NCBI RefSeq assembly: GCF_006345805.1
Contig: NC_043000.1
Span: 71,982,001-72,046,000 of the forward strand
Direction of reading: 5' to 3'
Source of the DNA: Octopus sinensis
Taxonomy: Eukaryota
Length of the DNA: 64,000 nt
Shown here: positions 7,286 to 58,849 of the stretch, in pieces
Layout of the letters: each line of letters starts with the position of its first letter
Position numbering within the stretch: the stretch's first letter is position 1
Notes under the pieces: model-generated
Told to the model about the DNA's origin: nothing
Database searches by the model: none
What the model saw: the letters and a program-made list of their open reading frames with translations, nothing else
Program-made: the position numbers and the translations under genes

Positions 7286-7925
7286 CACGAGGGGGTACAC
7301 AAAAGAAACCGGAATTTTGCAATATTATTTTATTCACTTACATGTTTACACTTTTTATCGTCTTCAAAGTTTTCTCCATTCCACGCAATGACGCAATGCA
7401 TCGGTCCAGAGGCGTTTTCCACTGTCCTCGAACTCTTGCGAAGTGATACTTTTTAAGACCTCTGTCGTTTTATTATTCACCTTTTCCACATCTGCAAAGC
7501 GTTTTCTTTTAAGGACTTTTTTCATCCGGGTGAACAAAAAAAAAAGTCGCAGGAAGCAAGGTCGACTGCATACGGAGGGTGGGTAAGGGGGGGTCATACC
7601 ATCTTTGGTCAAAAACCGTTTCACACTCAAGGTGGTCTGCGTAGGCCTATTGTCGTGATAAAACCACCATTCTCCACTTTGCCATAGGTCGGGGCGTTTT
7701 CGCCTTACCGCGTCTCGCAAACGCTTCAGAACTGCCAAAATCTCTGGTTAATAGTTTGACTAGGAAGAACAAATTCTGTGTGGACAATTCCTTTCACAAC
7801 GATGTAACAAACCAGCATCGTCTTGACATTGGACTTCACTTGGTGCACTTTTTTTTTGGGGGGGGGGCGTGATGAGGTGATGAGATCGAATGCTTCCATT
7901 GACTTGATTGCTGCTTCACCGTTTA
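7286..7925 (-). mobile_element. mariner (DD34D-type) transposon, right part with TIR
   Basis: ORF 7364-7738 reads LKRLRDAVRRKRP..W.F.HDN.P...PPY(SPDL)...LKRKRF. TIR TA|CACGAGGGGGTACACAAAAGAAACCGGAATT at 7286. Confidence 0.85.
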
Positions 7926-9559
7926 CTTTACCGTATTTATCTAAGTCATGATAAAATCCTTAAGAAGATGCACAATGTTGTAAACGCATAGAATCGAAAA
8001 AAACCAGAGTATTAAAAAAAACAAAAACAAAAACAAAACAATATTTAAAAGAATCAGGAATTGAGGTTCATTCTTTTGAGAATTAACCTAATCTCCTCGA
8101 AAAGCAATATCTATTGTTAATATCTATTGTTGTTAATACTTATTGTTGTGAGTTTCAGAAATTTTAATTAGAAATACTTGTGACGAGAAAAAGTCAATGG
8201 CTAATATAAATTTAATCGTTTCAGTGCGTTCGAGGGACAGCATTCGATATGTTTCAGTCATTCGATATATTTCCTCAACAGCGCATAATACTGTAATTTC
8301 CGAAGACATAGTGGGATAACCACTAAGTAGACGTATACTATTGTGCAAAGAGAGATGTAGATTTACATTCTGCTCAGGCAGGACAAGCCAAACCATGAAG
8401 TAAGTATCATAATATAAAATCAAGTATCTAGTACATAATTACGACAAACGGCACTCAAGCACTTATAGAGGAAGAACAGTTACTAGAACTACAACACTAA
8501 AAACAACGAAGTATATACATATTACTACCAACCTCACCGGCCGTTCACCAGATTACACACATTCCAAACACAGTTACGGAAAAACGTCAATGCAAATAAA
8601 ATATACTGCTATGCTATAGATAACATCAAAATTAAACTCCTTTTTTTTACCCTAAACACTAATTAAGTTCACTAGCTTTTCTTCAACATCCACGAAGCTT
8701 CAAGTAAAACCATATGGTAAACGACACCACCCTAATACCGACCACCTGCCGTCATCATTATAACATAAATTAGCAAAACTAAAACAACTGTAACACTTCA
8801 ACTCAGCATCAAGCATCTAAATAAGGAAGTAACAATCAAAAGAAAGAAAAGAAGAGCTGACAAATATTTGCATCCAACATAAATCACAAAATAATAAGTA
8901 AAGCACTCTGCAAAAAAGTTAGCCGTATAAATAACTCTAACGCCACCCGGTACATTAACAACTTGAAATAAGGTACTTACAGCAAACAAATTCTTTTTAT
9001 CAGTTTGTCTTTCTTTAGAAAAACCACTCAAAGAAGACAGAAACATAACTAAAACTATGGAAACTAATGCACATAAAAAAAGGTAACGAGACTTTAAACT
9101 AGAATATGATTTCCCTTTATCAGAAGCAAAGGAAATAAGAAAATAACAAAACTTAAACTCCCCAGACCCTAATAAAATTGCAAGTATACTTGTAAAGCAA
9201 TTAGGGCTTGAGAACAGTTACTGGGTTCACCAGTATCTATACCTGTTAATGTCAACAGTAACAAACCCATAATTAAGAAACTGCTTAAAATCTCACAAAT
9301 TCGAAATTAAACAAAACCAATGAAAGGTAGCGTCAAACTAATAAATATACAATGAACACTCTCAATATATCTTTGTAGATACATCGTTGATATCAATAAT
9401 TTCTGCAGTCCTCTCTCTAAATCACAATTATGTTTCGGTCCTCTTTCCTCATTTGTCAAATTTCTTATCTACATTACATAACAGACTAAACACGCATGCA
9501 CACACACAAGATAAAATACGCTAGCTCGCAAACAAGATCTCAGATAATTAAACATGTAG

Positions 9560-32725: not shown

Positions 32726-32730
<5 letters not shown>

Positions 32731-34285
32731 TCGACTGTATCTTTGCCTCCCTAGTGGCTTCCCTCCCCTCCCACATCCACGACACTAATCATGCTCTCCG
32801 TCTCTTCAACTCTTTCTCCTTCCCTCCTTGCCCTTCTAGACTTCTCTTCACTCTTGATATCAAGGGTCTATATACGGTGATCCTACACAACGAAGAACTC
32901 CTTGTATTCAAACACTTCCGAAACCTTCGATCCAGTCCCCAATCTGACACCTCCACAATCCTTCGTCTGGCCGAATTTGTTCTCTCCCTCAACTGCGTCT
33001 CGTTCGCGGGATATTTTTACCAACACCTCTCGGGAGTGGCCGTGGGAACAAAAATGGGCCCCAACTATGCGAATCTGTTCGTTGGATATGTTGAGGCCCA
33101 AATATTCTCACGATTCACTCCCGAACTATACGGTCGTTATATTGATGACTCTATCGGGGTGACCTCGCTCTCGTGCGAACAACTTGACTCCTTCCTATCT
33201 TTTGTCCAATCCTTCTATCCTGTCTTCGAATTCTCCTGACTATTTCCAACACTCCTGTCGCATTTCTCGACATTTCGGCCAATGTACACCACTCCGTGCT
33301 CACTACCCCCATCCACTACAAACACACCGACTCACACTCACCATTCCTTACTCCCAATTCCTCCATCTGTGCAGGCTCTGCAGTGACAACCGTGACTTTC
33401 AGACTCATGGTTCTCTACTTCATCCTTTGTAGATATCCCCTCACCACTATCCACACAGCACTTGCCAGAGCACATTCCGTGTACCGGTCCTCTGCTCTCT
33501 CTTCCCGTACCCGCCCCACCGTTGCCCGTCTCTCATTTCCCCTCATCTACCCTCCACTCTGTCCCACCAACACACCATTCTTCGAACCTTCCGTCGATTC
33601 CAGTTCGACACCTCCACCTCACACATCTTCCCCAACCTACCCCTTCTCTCCTTCAAATGACCCCCATCCTGCGTGACCTCCTGGTCCGCAGTTTCTACCC
33701 TAAGCCCACCTCCCAACCTGGCTCGTTCCCCTGCTCCCGACCACGCTGCCGCACTTACCCCTACCTCTCCAATACTACCATCCTCACAGGCATTCATCAT
33801 CGTCCCTATCATATCACTGACTCCTTTATCTGCACTTCTAGAAACGTCATTTACTTCATCTCCTGCTCTTTCTGCCCTTCCCTATACATCAGTCAAACGG
33901 AACGTCGCTTGGCTGACCGGTTCATGGAACACCTCCGAGATATCAAACTCGGCAATGACACTCCGGTCTTGCGCCATTTCCGCTCTACCGGTCATTCATT
34001 ACAACACCTGTATGTGTTCGGATTGTCTTTGCACAGGATCCATCCGGATTCCCGCCTTCGCCGCGAACAAGAATTAATCTTCCTTCTTCGCCCTTTGCCC
34101 CACATGGGCTCAACTCTCCTCCACTCTTCATCTGACTCCTCTCCTCTCTTCATCTGACACCTACTTCCTCCCTTCACTCTTACTCACCTTCTGTCTTCAC
34201 TGATACTCAGCTTCTCGTTTCATTGATACCCCCCGACACCCCTTACTCCCACCCACTGCACCCACCCATCCCCACCCCCACCATA
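32726..34285 (+). mobile_element. Penelope-like element (Neptune-type) RT plus GIY-YIG, 5'-truncated and frameshifted
   Basis: HIHDT..LFTLDIKGLYT..GVAVGTKMGPNYANLFVG..RYIDD, then CSRPRC..CTSRNVIYFISCSFC..LYISQTERRL..RF.EH. Starts directly after (TA)n. Confidence 0.9.
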
Positions 34286-41126: not shown

Positions 41127-43101
41127 GACTTATACACGCCCTGATACCGTCGGTATCTACATATCAAATTTGAGCGCAATCGGATGGAGGATGCCCGAGA
41201 TCCTAGACTGACAGAACGGATTTTATATAATAGATTGTTGATATTTTGCTGAATGTTACTATTTTCTTTTAGAGACAGTTAAATTGTTCTGCTCTTTCAT
41301 AAATTCTCTTCATTTCTCAAATTACTCTATGTTTACTTACCAATCTATTATAATTGCTCATATTAATTACTAGGAAGCACACAGTATTTCCTTTTGCAAC
41401 CAAGTATATTAAAGGCTTACAAGCCAATATTGTGTCAATACTGTGTCCTTGCAAGGAAATAATATTTACGTTTCAGCTGACAGGAATGTGTTTAACATGT
41501 AAATGAACTTATCCAACAGTGTTTCACCGTTAAACTTAATGAGTATTTAAGCGATACGTTCGTAGGTAGTTGATGGGTTGGACGTGGTGCTGATGAAAGG
41601 GCAATAATTCTTGAAATATGCTTACACACCAATTACCTATTTTTTTCTATTTTCGATTGCATTGTTTACATAAACGTGTTCGCATACAAAACGTCATAAC
41701 TTACAGTGCTGGCTCTGAATTCTATAGAAAATCTATAGAGATAAACTTAAAAATATAATTACTCACTCCTGCAGTGCCTACTGCATGATACAGGAATAAA
41801 GTTGTTTTCAGAGTATGTATTGAAATTGCTGTCATTACTTTGTGTATTTTGAATATGTATTTTTAATCAAATTATTTTTTAAATGTTTCTTGATTTTGAG
41901 CTGAAAGTTTTATATCTTCTAGGCTACAAGGGTACCACCCAAACATAATAATATGAAGTAAGATATACTTTATCTAAATATCTAAGTGCTTTTCTATGAG
42001 CAGTGATTTACCATTTACATTGTAGAGGGTTTACAGCTAAAGCATATCTAAGTTTTAGAATTTAACTCTTAGAAACACATTAAAACTAAAATATGTGAAT
42101 GTTAATGTTTCCGCGTATTTTTTGCTTTTTAGTTGTGTAGTTGATCAGAAATAGAATCTAATCTCCTTTAGTCTATTCTTCAGTTCTTTTCTTTAGTTTG
42201 TTTCAGCCAAAACCATACTGGAGCACTACTTAGGTTTACAAAACTATTTTAGACTTTTAAAAACTTAGTAATTACAACTAAGTTATGAATAAATATAGAG
42301 TCATATCCGCATATTTAGTCTCAGCGATATTTGGGCACCAAGGGCTTTTCGGTAGTTTGGAATGAAGATCGGGGTGTCTGGTAGAATTGTTACTTGGAAA
42401 TTTATCAGAATCAGTTTACTGCCCTTCTCTAAGTAACCTGAGACTACTCGTTACAATGTAAACAAGCATGTGTCTCGGCAAATGTTATTCACAAAATGGC
42501 ACAAGGTTGACGACCTGAAAATAATTATTCGAGTACCAATAGAACATGAATATATATAAGTATGGTTTGTAAATAAATAGGCTATAAATAGTTTCGTACT
42601 TATCTGAATATGATCTTTCACATTATAATGTCTATAATTTATGTTACGATAATGGGGAAAGGATCCTATCCTTTTGATCTCTAAATTTTTGAATCTTTTA
42701 ATTTAGAGTAGATGATTATTTAATATATGCTTACAAAGTCTAATATTTAAACTTTATTTGTTAGATTGTATAATGGATTGACGCATAATATTGTTATATG
42801 AACAAGTAATACTTTGCATCGTTACATATGTAGGATAATAACACAGATTCAACCTCATAATCTCAATACATCACCTTTGTGATGTACTGAGGTTATAAGG
42901 TTGGATTATATAGTGCATTGTATATATAAGAAAAATAAACATTTAAATTGAATGGTCATTCAAAATACATCTCATATTGTGCCAAATATTCTCTTTATAA
43001 AGATTGTTCTATTCTTTCATAAATGGTGAACCAAGAGACCTAAAGACAAGTTAGACATCGTTTAGCTATTTAATGTACGGAAAAGCACACTATCAATACA
43101 T

Positions 43102-43492
43102 ACACTCCATCTCGTACTGAGTTCGACTTTGCCCTTCATCCTTTCGGGGTTGATAAAATAAGTAGCAGTTGCACACTGGAACCGATGTATTCAACTATCT
43201 TCATTCCCGCCAAAATTTCAGACCTTGCGCTTATAGTAGAAAAGAATATATACCCTTTATCTACCTCGCTCTGCTTCATCTTACGAATTCTTAATATGAT
43301 ATTCCTTATATATATATACATATATAAAGGTAGATAAAGGGTATATATTCTTTTCTACTATAAGCGCAAGGTCTGAAATTTTGGCGGGAATGAAGATAGT
43401 CGAATACATCGGTTCCAGTGTGCAACTGCTACTTATTTTATCAACCCCGAAAGGATGAAGGGCAAAGTCGAACTCAGTACGAGATGGAGTGT
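43102..43492. repeat. 165-bp near-perfect inverted duplication of local DNA
   Basis: 43102-43266 vs 43328-43492, one mismatch seen. Includes a SINE-D fragment and unique flank. Confidence 0.9.
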
Positions 43493-44160: not shown

Positions 44161-45620
44161 AATATTAAAAATATAATCGTACACAACACACAAAAACCAC
44201 AATACGAAAACAGCTGTTCATGCAGGAATAAAAAATTGTGCTCGCTAAATGGAGCTTGCATGCCCGAGACCGTTATCTACGAAGCTATCGTGGACTCTAT
44301 ACCCACTAAAGACACGGTTTCGACGAAGAAATAGGTGGGCCTTACAGAGGGTAATTTCAAGGCCAGGTTCAATAACCACACATTGAGTTTTAGGCACTGG
44401 GACAAAAGGAAAACGACAAAATTATCCAATCGTATATGGTCATTAAAAGATAAAGGTGTCAGTTACAACATCCATTGGAAGGTTTTTAGCCGAATGTAAG
44501 CCCTACATCAACGGCAGCGGAAAGTGCGGTCTATGTGACATGGAAAGATGGCTCATCTGGAAAAGCAGCTTAGACCCTGCTACATGTCTAAACACAAGGA
44601 CAGAACTTTTCGGATCATGCCCACATGTGACCAAATTTTTGTTACGTTTTTGGTCCCCCCAAAACTACAGATAGAACTTGCTTTCTATGTTATGTCCACG
44701 CACAAGTTTTATTGATCTCATTATACCTATTACTTTTATTTTTCATATATTTTTATATATATATCATAGAGAATTTGGTTTATAGATATATTTTTGTACA
44801 CATAATTTTCTGTACTCTACCTTCCACCCTGCATTTTTCCTTGTGCCTATATAAACGTGTATATGGAATCATTTGTACGCGCGTGTAGATGTGTACGTCT
44901 GTGCAGGTATGTATGTATATAGATGTGTGCATGTGTGCGGGCATAAGAGTACATATATGTATAGACGTTTTTACTCAGTGTTTTTACAATTTTTCCTGTT
45001 TTTTTCTTTTTAGACGTATGTATAATCCTTTTTGTGCGTGCGCGTGTGTATGCGTATATAATTGTGTGCGGGTATGTGCATATATGGGCGTGTCTGTGTG
45101 TGCGTGCATAAGGATATGTCCGTATACGAACGTGGTTTACCCTTTGTATACTTCCTTATGCCTTTTTTCTGTATTGTTAACATTAACTCTGTTTTTTCTT
45201 GTGCTTGTGCGTATGTAGAAATATGTATGAACTTTTACGGTGCGCGTGTGTGTGTGTGGGTTTGTATGTATATGCATATACATTTGGCGAAAGATGCGAG
45301 TGAATATGCGTACGTTTTTCTAGTGATGTATGCGTACGTACGTGGGTGTGCGAGCGCACATGTGTACGTATGAACAGGCGCGCTTACGCGTATACTATTG
45401 AACATTTTACCTTACCTTAATTAGCGGTCATTCGAATAGCGCTTTTGTATAAATAGCGATCTATAACACAGTAATTTCCCTTTGTATAACGGTCTTTTTT
45501 CATAGCGTTTTCCTGATGGCCGGATAACTGAAGAGATGGTGGTGTGGATTTCCACTTCGGCATCCGAAACTTAGAGTTTTATCTTGGCTACCGAATAATT
45601 GTCACATTATATTTACAGAT
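44161..45620 (+). mobile_element. Penelope-like element 3' part (GIY-YIG, probably Naiad-type) with 3' UTR and HHR
   Basis: Manual translation from 44161: CSCRNKKLCSLNGAC..VIYEA..K*VGLTEGNFKARFNNH..SF..TKLSNRIWSLK..IHWK, frameshift, then KPY..CGLCDMER..LNTRTELFGSCPH. The element ends at (TA)n. Confidence 0.85.
45518..45589 (+). ncRNA. Type-I hammerhead ribozyme in PLE 3' region
   Basis: GGCCGGATAA-CTGAAGA-GATG..GTGG-ATTT-CCAC..CATC-C-GAA-ACT-TAG-AGT-T-TTATCTTGGCT. Confidence 0.75.
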
Positions 45621-48739: not shown

Positions 48740-49498
48740 GCCGGGCGAAATGCGTAGCCGTATTTCGTCTGCCGTTGCGTTCTGAGTTCAACTTCCGCCG
48801 AGGTCGACTTTGCCTTTCATCCTTTCGGGGTCGATAAATTATGTACTAGTTACGCACTGGGGTCAATATAATCGACTGAATCCATTTGTCTGTCCTTGTT
48901 TGTTGCCCTCTGTGTTTAGCCCCTTGTGGGTAGTAAAGAAATAGAAATAGGCATTTCATCTGCCGCTACGTTCTGAGTTCAAATTCCGTCGAGGTCGACT
49001 TTGCTTTTTATCTTTTCGGGGTCGATTAAATAAGCACCAGTTACGTACTTGGGTCGATATAATCGACTTAATCCCTTTGTCTGTCCTAGTTTGTCCACTC
49101 TATGTTTAGCCCCTTGTGGGTAGTAAAGAAATAGGTATTTCGTCTGCCGCTACGTTCTGAGTTCAAATTCCGCCGAGGTCAACTTTGCCTTTCATGCTTT
49201 CGGGGTCGATTAAATAAGTACCAGATACGCACTTGGGTCGATATAATCGACTTAATCCGTTTGTCTGTCCTTCTTTGTCCCCTTTGTGTGTAGCCCTTTG
49301 TGGGCAGTAAAGAAATAGGTATTTCGACTGCCGCTATGTTCTGAGTTCAAATTCCGCCGAGGTCGCCTTAGCCTTTCATCCTTTCGGGGTCGACTAAATA
49401 AGTACCAGTTACGCACTGGGGTCGATGTAATCGACTTAATCCCTTTGTCTGTCCTTGTTTGTCCCCTCTATGTTTAAACCTTTGTAAAGAAATAAGAA
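48740..49498 (+). repeat. Head-to-tail tetramer of SINE family D (period about 184-191 bp)
   Basis: TATTTCGTCTGCCG-like starts at about 48761, 48952, 49136 and 49320. Each unit has the B-box-like GAGTTCAAATTCC and the core GTCGACTTTGCCTTTCATCCTTTCGGGGTCG. Confidence 0.9.
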
Positions 49499-54928: not shown

Positions 54929-56151
54929 AAGTAAACGACTAACATCAATAATTACTTTTTAATACAAATAGACTGTATTCCATCTAATAGCTGTTTCTAC
55001 CTTCTACTTCCAATGTTCTATGGTATTGCCATTGAAAATTCTGGAAATACTATTCAGCATATTTGGTTATAAATCCGATGTGGAACATGGAGCTCCATCG
55101 GAGTGAAGAAAAATACATTAAAGAAAAGAAAAGAAAAGCAGAAGAGCTTCGAGAAGAAGATGAAAGGTCTAATGTAATTAAATCATACCATTTTGCATAT
55201 GTGTTGCTTCAGGACATTGAGTAAATGACTAAACTTAAAATATTGATTGGTGGGTTAATTTTTCTATCGGGGTAACAGATGTATAAGTAATACAAAAGTA
55301 AAATAAAAAAAAAAGAAATTACCATAACGGGATATGCCAATAGGTCTAGAGAAAGAGGGAGTAAGAATGCCATAACACTTAAGTAATCATAATAGTTCTT
55401 AAAATTATGTTAATAGTACTAATCAATAGTTTATCATAATAAATTACCCATAAATTAATAACAGCGGAGATTTATTATTATTCACTTACTAATATATTGT
55501 AAAGACCAACCACGTAATGCGATTGACCAAAGTCCAGCTTTCGATATAATGGTCAGTTAAATTTAAAAACAAAGCTATTAAGACCGTTATACGGGCAGGT
55601 GTAAATGGATAAATAAAGGTATAGAAAAGTAGTATATGTTGTAAAGTGACCCCCAAACCGCTTAGGACATTGTAAATAAAAATAACAAACAAACATGTAA
55701 ACAAGCACAATGCGAAGGAATGAACAACGCTCGCAGTGTCATAAAAACGCAGAGATGTCCTTATTTGGACAATTGTGAATTAAGGCGGTGGGGAAATGGA
55801 CAAATGCTTTATAAAATAGGAATGTGAAGTTAGTATACAAAGAAAGGAATTCATGAGTAGAAAAGGAAATAGGGAAGGAGGTAAAGGTGTGAACTACGGT
55901 TAAGGGGAGGCTACAGTTAAGGGGAGGTAATGACTAGGGAAGTGACATTTAGAGAATTATTATACTAACTTCTGAACTAGGGTTAACATAGGTAATTATA
56001 CTGGTAGTAAAACGGATATTTTTATCCCTTAGACGGTTATCCCAAACTCTACTGACCTATACATACATACATACATACATACATGCATACATACATACAT
56101 ACATACATACATACATACATACATACATACATACATACATACATACATACG

Positions 56152-56178
<27 letters not shown>

Positions 56179-56182
<4 letters not shown>

Positions 56183-56448
56183 AATTGCAGCGTGGAAGGT
56201 GTTTATAAGCCATTTAAGAAACACACAAAAGCCGTTCGATTCACTTCAGCACGGACTTTGTCAGTGAACAGGTCGCGGATTTTAGCGACGAAAATATTTT
56301 GACAAATTAAACTTAAATGTTGAAGTGAATCGAACGGTTTTTGTGTGTTTCTTAAATGGCTTATAAACACCTTCCACGCTGCAATTGTTTTCGTTTCAGC
56401 ACACGATCTCAGATCAAATTACTTGCTATGCGAGTACATCTCCGTAAT
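56179..56448 (+). mobile_element. PLE-like terminal fragment with 70-bp inverted copy between (TA)n tracts
   Basis: 56179-56248 is the reverse complement of 56321-56390. 56355-56448 recurs inverted at 61312-61404. Confidence 0.7.
56257..56306 (+). ncRNA. Type-I hammerhead motif with G3:C8 core swap
   Basis: TTTGTCA-GTGAACA-G-GTCGC-GGATTTTA-GCGAC-GAA-AATATT-T-TGACAAA: 7-bp stem I, 5-bp stem II, palindromic stem III. Confidence 0.65.
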
Positions 56449-56639
56449 ATATATATATATATATATATACGAGTGTGTGTGTGCGCGTGTGTGCGTGTCC
56501 TTGTGTTTGTGTTTGCTCCCCATCACCGCTTGACAAGTGGTGTTGGTGTATATACGTTCCCGTAACTTAGCGATTCGGCAAAAGGCACTTATAGAATAAG
56601 TACTATGCTTAAAAATATAAACCCTGGCGCCGACTTACA

Positions 56640-57500
56640 AATAGTAATGGAAATAACCTATCATCTTGAAATATACTACGTTTGATGTTCACTTTTCCAA
56701 GTATTTGTTTTCCTCCAATCAATTAAGTACTTCACTGTTTCATACTTACATCAGCCCTTTTCTCCATATTCTCTGACACTGTAAACATGCTCGTTGTTTT
56801 ACTAACTCAACTGTGCAGTACCATATCATATGCTTTTCTGTAATCCAACTAAGCAACATTCAATCCCGTCAATCTGCGTCTACAAATTCTAATTATCATT
56901 TTGTCAACTAATAACTGGTATTTAGTTGCCATACTTGCTTCTAATATTCTTTCTGTTCTATTGGAAGTAAACTGTTACTTTCCAGATGATCCAGATAATT
57001 ATATAATTTTTACACCAAGACATCAATCATAAGCTTCTACATAAGTAGTAAAAATGTTATACATCGAAAATTTGACACCAGTTTACCTTTCAAGTGTCCT
57101 TAGAACATAACAACGTTCATCCACTTGTATTCCAGGTAGGAACGTGTCGTTGCTGCAGGTACTCATCAAAATGTGCAGTGATCCTTTCCTGCAACTGTGT
57201 AAAATTCGTCAGCCAATAACCTTGTCCAGACATGGATGGTTGTGTTCCATTGCCTAAAATTCTACTGGTGATATAATCTAGGAAAATAGTGTCTTTTTTT
57301 GTTTTGTTAGTTTCTGAGGTCCTTTTATTGTCCAGTTAGATGTTAATGGTGGTCAGTGTTTCTCTGTTTCATAATGTTCCGTTCGAATCCAAGGAAGGAT
57401 GATTCGATCTTGTTTTTGCACAGTATTATTATTTCCAAATGCTTAATCATTATGTGTTCTCTGGATGTAATGATCTCCAGAGTTTCCTCTGGGCATAAGT
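56640..57500 (-). mobile_element. Decayed R4/Dong-like RT fragment
   Basis: Minus strand near 56820-56865 reads NVA*LDYRKAYDMV. Confidence 0.6.
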
Positions 57501-57537
57501 TACACACCATGTATGTATATATATATATGTATATGTA

Positions 57538-57624
<87 letters not shown>

Positions 57625-57941
57625 GAAAAAACAAGTCAAGATAGAAAATGCTAAAATAATTTTATAAAGAACATTTCAGTACCGGTTTCGGTCATTTTGA
57701 GACCACAACGACCTCGAACCCACAAGTGTAAACAAGAGAGACAGAGAAAGGCAGAAACAAGGAAAATGCCACTTATATTTGAACACTATACAAATATTCC
57801 TTTAATAAAACTTTTCTTTTAATTTTTCTAAATTTAATTATTTAATCGTTACAGTTGAAAAGGTCTCAAAATGACCGAAACCGGTACTGAAATGTTCTTT
57901 ATAAAATTATTTTAGCATTTTCTATCTTGACTTGTTTTTTC
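57625..57941 (+). mobile_element. PLE-like terminal fragment with 80-bp inverted copy between (TA)n tracts
   Basis: 57625-57704 is the reverse complement of 57862-57941. Confidence 0.7.
57852..57889 (+). ncRNA. Minimal type-I hammerhead motif with U3:A8 core swap
   Basis: CAG-TTGAAAA-GGTC-TCAAAAT-GACC-GAA-ACCGGT-A-CTG, with palindromic stem III ACCGGT. Confidence 0.6.
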
Positions 57942-57975
57942 ATATATATCAACTCGTGTGTTCTTTTTCACCCTT

Positions 57976-58089
<114 letters not shown>

Positions 58090-58849
58090 ATGTATGTATG
58101 TATGTATGTATGTATGTATATATGTATGTATGTATGTATGTATATATGTATGTATGTATGTATACTACATATGTGGGAAATTCTGTCTGTGGGTGTAGTT
58201 TTTAGCTAACTCCTCCTACATCGTTTTATCGATTTTGATTAAACTTGATGCGTGAGTAGAACTCATATCTGGAAACTTCATGGCATACTCAAATTGTAGA
58301 AAATCGATAATAGGGCCCTTGGAAGGGATCCTTATATATAGCCAAGGGAAATAACCCATTCGTTTCGCTAAATTATTTGGTAAAAATGAAATTGAGTATG
58401 CTTATTTCTTAGTATTTGAACTGTTTGAGTTATTTTTGCAATTTATCCAGTACAACCCTTAAACAAGTAAATGATATTTTTTAAAACAATAGATCCACTT
58501 ATTTCGGTTAGTGACTTATTCACGAATATACCAACACTAGCGCCCCTAAGGGTAATATTCTCTGGTAACGCACTAATGCCCTTTTCAGAATTATTTACTT
58601 TGAATTGTTATCTCATATTTTCTAATGTTATTATGTAACATACTTCACGATTTTAGTATACATACCTTATCAGTATTTTCTCCTATGTTCAATATACTCT
58701 AGGAACGCATTAAAGCCCTTTTCGGGCTACTTTATTTGAATTCTTACTATAGGGTAACTAATTTCATGTTATTACATAATTGCGCTTCCCACAGCGCATG
58801 CGTTTCGTTGTCAGTGTTGTTCGTACCACTGATTGAAGTCATCATGCAG

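Follow-up and report, generated by a model that had tools for sequence, protein, structure and literature searches.

Fixed exchanges of the hammerhead 3:8 tertiary pair in two families of octopus PLEs

Hammerhead motifs of Penelope-like elements (PLEs) are known as minimal type-I forms that cleave weakly as dimers (PMC4209133), and the same study describes U3-A8 versions in the Cercyon families of Schistosoma mansoni, with ~1,300 matches (Cervera and de la Pena 2014, PMC4209133). Natural U3-A8 hammerheads and covariation of the 3:8 pair were also reported by Perreault et al. 2011 (PMC3088659), which, in its available part, names U3/A8 and not G3/C8. The double change C3G/G8C has been engineered in the hammerhead of the anole Poseidon element PAc, where it partly restores cleavage (Frangieh et al. 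2024, PMC11167929). Cleavage of the PAc hammerhead needs the element's protein, hammerhead mutants had no effect on insertion in vitro, and no RNA reads ended at the cut. Rates of PLE hammerheads in vitro are low, and the one reconstituted element did without cleavage, which bears on whether PLE hammerheads cut in cells and why they are retained.

We analyzed a 64-kb stretch of Octopus sinensis DNA (the window) in which a sequence-only reading had picked out two hammerhead scaffolds carrying GUGAACA and UUGAAAA where CUGANGA is expected, and had proposed that positions 3 and 8 changed together so that pairing was kept. Both scaffolds are present, with a Watson-Crick 3:8 pair in each:

56257..56306, plus strand: site 1, minimal type-I hammerhead with G3 (56264):C8 (56269); family F1
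57852..57889, plus strand: site 2, minimal type-I hammerhead with U3 (57855):A8 (57860); family F2

Site 1 has the core G3-U-G-A-A-C8-A9 (56264-56270) followed by one extra G at 56271, a stem I of 7 bp, and a stem II of 5 bp with closing pair G10.1-C11.1 and then GAAA; its helix III is the palindrome AAUAUU (56293-56298), and U17 at 56299 places the predicted cut between 56299 and 56300. Site 2 has the core U3-U-G-A-A-A8-A9 (57855-57861) with no extra base before stem II, a stem I of 3 bp, a stem II of 4 bp followed by GAAA, the helix III palindrome ACCGGU (57880-57885), and A17 at 57886, with cleavage predicted between 57886 and 57887. The two thus share a core N3-UGA-N-N8-A, GAAA, U16.1-H17 and a Watson-Crick 3:8 pair, while departing from the literal CUGANGA consensus. 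At both, helix I closes the motif and G10.1-C11.1 closes helix II (G-C in 7/7 rows of the alignment described below).

A type-I descriptor with positions 3 and 8 left free matched these two sites and nothing else on either strand of the 64 kb. The background in 60 dinucleotide shuffles was a mean of 0.15 Watson-Crick matches per window, falling to 0.017 per window (again 60 shuffles) when a palindromic helix III and a stem II of at least 4 bp were required. As had been anticipated, a search that requires CUGANGA overlooks both sites, and the descriptor with a free 3:8 pair recovers both. An Rfam search of the window (E ≤ 1) gave no hammerhead family among the 150 listed of 164 matches, indicating that the standard models miss sites 1 and 2. 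The same reading had said that other motifs in the window keep C3:G8; there is one clear case, at 45523-45583, with a bulged stem II, and one weak match at 41590. The clear case is a canonical C3:G8 type-I hammerhead with a helix III of 3 bp and (TA)n downstream.

Sites 1 and 2 are pseudo-LTR (pLTR) hammerheads that belong to two unrelated PLE families and lie 1.6 kb apart in separate insertions. This identity follows from linked ORFs with RT and GIY-YIG, from the combination of an inverted arm with a direct piece, and from two alternative 3' ends in each family. The insertions in the window comprise:

56180..56251, minus strand: F1 inverted arm, an antisense copy of 56318-56389 that ends before the hammerhead, which occupies the hairpin loop
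56247..56450, plus strand: F1 direct piece, a pseudo-LTR with the hammerhead, the start of the ORF region and an optional tail of ~60 nt
57617..57704, minus strand: F2 inverted arm, antisense of 57862-57949, spanning the hammerhead from stem II to stem I and predicted to mask it
57704..57975, plus strand: F2 direct piece, the pseudo-LTR of the F2 PLE, with tail
56059..56179, no strand: (ATAC)n/(TA)n microsatellite next to the F1 insertion
56447-56470, 57512-57624 and 57975-58164: similar arrays at the remaining ends of the F1 and F2 insertions

The F1 direct piece is 97-99.5% identical to many other copies and is truncated at its 5' end ~5 nt inside the inferred RNA start. At loci L235 and L239 the 3' part of the F1 pLTR continues into the N-terminus of the ORF, and at other genomic loci (L066, L097, L064) the F1 motif lies ~0.9-1.0 kb, and the F2 motif ~0.7 kb, downstream of an ORF. 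The F1 ORF, up to 1042 codons long, contains RT motifs, a linker of the form CX3CxxC and an end that resembles GIY-YIG; this 1042-codon frame has no Pfam match of its own and aligned to the F2 RT at 97.9% probability, and of 30 aligned members RVT_1 was matched by four and GIY-YIG by one. Pieces of the F2 ORF match RVT_1 and GIY-YIG in Pfam and have the linker CX4CxxC. We provisionally label F2 Neptune-like and F1 Nematis-like. A CX2-5CxxC linker between RT and EN is a feature of the Neptune/Nematis PLE clades (PMC8557442). Each family has two alternative 3' ends differing by the optional tail, an arrangement described for PLEs (PMC8557442, PMC11167929), and (TA)n-type arrays are typical PLE targets (PMC8557442). 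F1 and F2 therefore show the features of EN+ PLEs: pLTR arrangement, inverted 5'-truncated copies, optional tail and (TA)n targets.

The window copies of both families are 5'-truncated relics with no dimer partner in cis, and cleavage in cis is probably not to be expected of them. Folding of the window predicts that the F1 motif stays intact as part of a hairpin loop and that the F2 motif pairs with the inverted arm of its own insertion. Between the two insertions, 56621-57500 contains a 72-codon frame (57117-57335, minus strand); an assignment of this interval to a retroelement remnant was dropped after it gave no Pfam, protein or locus match. Elsewhere in the window we noted a decayed PLE ORF remnant on the plus strand (32730-34106, sharing 22-37% identity with the RT and EN portions of further families), a hairpin of ~250 nt (43170-43424), and a 184-nt unit repeated 3.9 times (48760-49476) that presumably resembles an octopus SINE.

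Are the exchanges properties of these two copies or of their families? With the seven core bases blanked, exact F1 flanks were found in 1,436 copies (reversed control, 0); in the first 100 listed of these, G3 was present in 100, C8 in 98, the whole core in 93, and C3:G8 in none. The corresponding search for F2 returned 1,801 copies, with the core unchanged in all 100 listed. Another 188 F1 copies lack G3, and by-eye counting of 100 listed found C3:G8 in none, C8 kept in 93 and A3:U8 in two; the retention of C8 indicates single-hit decay away from G3:C8. No F1 core position was variable at 5% of depth in contigs from four runs (organisms A-D), and the same was true of the F2 core in four runs (organisms A-C). 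The aligned contigs showed no position in F1 or F2 at which many molecules start or stop, though contigs do not reveal RNA ends. An older F1 subfamily with a different loop II retains G3:C8 (two related copies, on the same contig, have G3:G8), and an older F2 subfamily in which the first stem II pair is compensated retains U3:A8.

The F1 G3:C8 and the F2 U3:A8 are thus fixed in their families. The suggestion that these motifs are not decay products holds up, with G3 in 100/100 listed F1 copies and an unchanged core in 100/100 listed F2 copies, and the family consensus, which could have turned out to be canonical, is G3:C8 for F1 and U3:A8 for F2. The possibility that sites 1 and 2 arose by mutation of CUGANGA motifs in these copies alone, or match by chance, is negligible: with thousands of copies and C3:G8 in 0 of 300 listed rows, it is refuted by the family counts.

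Separately from the core, several positions at 56315-56363 show A-to-G differences, reaching ~15-17% of depth (56354) in two runs that we guessed to be RNA and at <0.1% in two large runs, the two sets differing in both run kind and individuals. These differences likely reflect A-to-I editing of the hammerhead strand.

To see how the 3:8 pair behaves across relatives of F1, we traced sister lineages by protein similarity and read off the motif that follows each ORF. The sample is small and its members are related, with protein identities of 44-53% and one of 28%. A sister family at ~51% identity has U3:A8, with the extra G and U17 as in F1, and a second, at ~53%, combines C3:G8 with a C in position 9. 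Of five metagenome relatives with downstream sequence, three have the motif (C3:G8; U3:A8 with C9; C3:G8) and two have none. An alignment of seven rows covers six lineages, F1 being represented by two rows. Its 3:8 pair is CG in three rows, GC in two and UA in two, with no unpaired row, and four of the five stem II pairs change on both sides. The covariation score was reached by none of 500 shuffles, and sliding the partners abolishes the signal. Three different Watson-Crick pairs without a mismatch are what selection on the tertiary 3:8 pair would be expected to produce, and by the alignment statistics the 3:8 exchange among F1 sister lineages is real covariation. The tree of these lineages, which is unrooted and includes two short or wrong-frame rows, supports two groupings only, F1 and F1s+F1b (95/99). 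A 3:8 tally over 14 families (P=5.6e-5) was set aside because the families were hand-picked and their kinship was ignored; it also omitted five unassigned singletons (four of them non-Watson-Crick) and three mismatched copies of F1 or its sister.

U3:A8 also occurs in the sister family of F2 and in another family with C17, making it common in this genome. A search for a second G3:C8 family, limited to a GG...CC stem II, found none: the pattern had 255 matches against 458 for the reversed control, and the first 100 matches listed were F1 derivatives or singletons. With G3:C8 found in a single lineage by a search of this one stem II type, the flip would be a single evolutionary event. Such a single origin fits a neutral accident, in which the F1 master lineage fixed two substitutions once its ribozyme no longer mattered and their complementarity is coincidental, and Naiad PLEs do thrive without canonical hammerheads (PMC8557442). 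We nevertheless consider this very improbable, as six lineages of the clade display three different pairs and zero mismatches, elsewhere the core and stem II are either unaltered or carry compensating changes, and G3:C8 outlasted the turnover of loop II between F1 subfamilies.

One young PLE family of the clade, whose open frames are long (the protein P0002 family), has a motif with C3:G8 and C9, the C being present in nearly all of 31 motif rows at a position that is normally invariant. The occurrence of C9 in this young sister family and in one metagenome relative (loci L177-L206 and L209:2493-2541) suggests that the core is under relaxed constraint in the clade.

In monomer folds a competing pair between positions 3 and 17 is favored, with probability 0.67 for G3.U17 in F1 and 0.82 for U3-A17 in F2, resembling the 3:17 trap discussed for G17 variants (PMC3884650). 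The helix III duplex is marginal in F1 (-0.2 kcal/mol) compared with -8.3 in F2, and dimer folds use the palindromic helix III in F2 and not in F1. Since the swaps permit the 3:17 pair and the F1 helix III duplex is weak, these models suggest that activity is probably low and assisted by dimerization or by protein, in agreement with the low dimer activity of PLE hammerheads (PMC4209133) and the protein-assisted anole ribozyme (PMC11167929). A heterodimer of sites 1 and 2 was rejected, as their helix III palindromes, AAUAUU and ACCGGU, differ.

We looked for traces of cleavage in the genome itself. If cut F1 RNA is reverse transcribed, synthesis stops at the cut and insertions begin there. Our sample was all 97 F1 copies in which the base preceding the first post-cut base is not T. 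A single position served as the control; it lies 8 nt downstream, at the foot of stem I, which is where stalling at a hairpin should show up. As classed by script, the insertion started exactly at the cut in 60 of the 97 copies, whereas the control position was the start in 11 of 87 examined, out of 150. The 60 cut-start copies divide into 13 whose junctions share stem I microhomology with an inverted copy, 33 with an inverted arm of variable length and 14 with other flanks. Hand curation dropped four site rows and two control rows, reassigned one row to the microhomology group and discarded repeated junctions, leaving 54 starts against ~15.5, a ratio of 3.5 (p 7e-5) relative to one control position and with seven rows altered by eye. 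Without the stem I microhomology class, 41 starts remain, for a ratio of 2.6 (p 0.003) to the same one control position. The excess of F1 starts at the cut, ~2.6-3.5 times one control position, may thus be an indirect sign of cleavage. At the F2 cut there were no boundaries among ~55 pieces, which were mostly chosen for containing the whole motif. At loci L307, L360 and L272, the 11 nt just after the F1 cut recur as short head-to-tail repeats that begin exactly at the cut.

Most F1 insertions begin elsewhere. In the control sample, the main 5' boundary lies 53-62 nt upstream of the cut (41/87 rows), which implies that most F1 templates were uncut and that a small minority appears to have been cut; uncleaved RNA is probably the main F1 template, judging from these boundaries. 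Among 41 F1 copies starting at AGAUG (for example L016, L023, L335 and L395; equivalent to approximately window position 56242), 27 have a G before it that is absent from the element's upstream DNA. Copying of the cap is known from other retroelements, and this extra G is likely a copied cap that marks the start of the RNA. Alternatively, the G could come from a tiny spliced exon, and the DNA upstream of AGAUG does also resemble a splice acceptor. A 7-codon upstream frame begins in the F1 AGAUG region and stops at the UGA of the hammerhead core. Intronless, dCMP-deaminase-like frames adjoin F1 pLTR ends in a ~6.2 kb tandem repeat (L061:4800-5410, L062:949-1612 and 7369-8025) and are possibly a retrocopy made by F1.

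These boundaries bear on a different account of the conserved pair, that the hammerhead fold serves a function other than catalysis, such as binding of the element's protein, packaging or translation control, and is retained for it, with negligible cleavage, the 3:8 pair conserved for the fold, and the excess of 5' ends arising from template switching or pausing at stem I. It would explain why most F1 insertions derive from uncut RNA, why C9 variants are tolerated in a young family, and why the 3:17 trap is favored while F1 helix III is weak; anole insertion in vitro needs no hammerhead cleavage (PMC11167929), and 14 of 56 junctions have stem I microhomology and are explicable by template switching at the stem I repeat. 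However, the 3:8 pair is an established part of the active conformation (PMC3088659, PMC8495972), the start excess persists after the microhomology class is removed, the control is low although it marks the foot of stem I, the place expected for a hairpin stall, and many junctions combine an inverted arm of variable length with a constant start at the cut. We regard the non-catalytic account as unlikely, at roughly one chance in four, and favor weak cleavage: the F1 G3:C8 form likely still cuts its own RNA, to go by the covariation and the insertion starts.

Under weak, assisted cleavage, F1 RNA would start ~58 nt upstream of the cut and be capped, with the hammerhead at its extreme 5' end, and most of it would be reverse transcribed uncut. 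Two pLTR copies, in a tandem element or in two RNAs, could pair through the palindromic helix III. Base 3 could also pair with base 17. This would extend stem I and leave the ribozyme largely inactive unless a partner RNA or the protein of the element refolded it into an active form. A minority of the RNA would then be cut after U17 and lose its capped leader, giving rise to insertions that begin at the cut. We think it probable overall that these are PLE pLTR hammerheads with fixed, exchanged 3:8 pairs and low, assisted cleavage, and that F1 RNA is mostly copied uncut. The bolder proposition, that F1 is the first natural G3:C8 lineage, cleaves in vivo, and records in its thousands of insertions the fates of both capped uncut RNA, marked by a cap-derived G at the start, and ribozyme-cut RNA, is more tentative and falls somewhat short of an even bet. 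If true, the genome would show that transposition templates are cut by PLE hammerheads, at a rate tuned down by the 3:8 swap together with the competing 3:17 pair.

More generally, insertion boundaries offer a way to read cleavage without RNA data, and one clade provides a natural allelic series of C3:G8, U3:A8 and G3:C8 together with C9 variants. Descriptors built on CUGANGA and UUGANAA undercount hammerheads, and claims that some PLE families have none may need re-checking with a free 3:8 pair. As for precedent, a literature search found no report of octopus PLE hammerheads. The U3:A8 swap of F2 is already known; the natural G3:C8 of F1 appears to be undescribed, being absent from Fig. S3 of PMC4209133 and from PMC6155905, PMC6765202, PMC7229834, PMC7936874 and PMC10085705 in the parts available, and a wider literature search of partial coverage gave no report, which makes its novelty provisional.

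The octopus motifs share with the metazoan PLE minimal type-I hammerheads (PMC4209133) their pLTR location, short palindromic helix III and G10.1-C11.1 pair, as well as mostly solitary truncated copies and inverted pairs. The extra base between positions 9 and 10.1 is common to those hammerheads and F1 and is absent from F2, which differs from them also in having A17; nonetheless the F2 core UUGAAAA is that of the S. mansoni (4) row in Fig. S3 of the same study. G3:C8, in contrast, is in no extracted row of that figure, whereas at least 1,400 F1 copies carry it. Non-LTR retrozymes (PMC7229834; bioRxiv 10.64898/2026.07.22.740005) likewise have type-I hammerheads that work as dimers and are related to PLE pLTRs, but they are non-coding tandem arrays with one hammerhead per unit, whereas the F1 and F2 copies are dispersed, represent the ends of elements that bear an ORF, and have no tandem array over the motifs. 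A close parallel to F1 is PAc (PMC11167929), with which it shares a flipped 3:8 pair in a PLE hammerhead, a hammerhead near the ORF start and an optional tail marking two 3' ends. In PAc the flip is a laboratory rescue mutant and no RNA ends were found at the cut; in F1 the flip is natural and family-fixed, and genomic copies have an excess of 5' ends at the cut.
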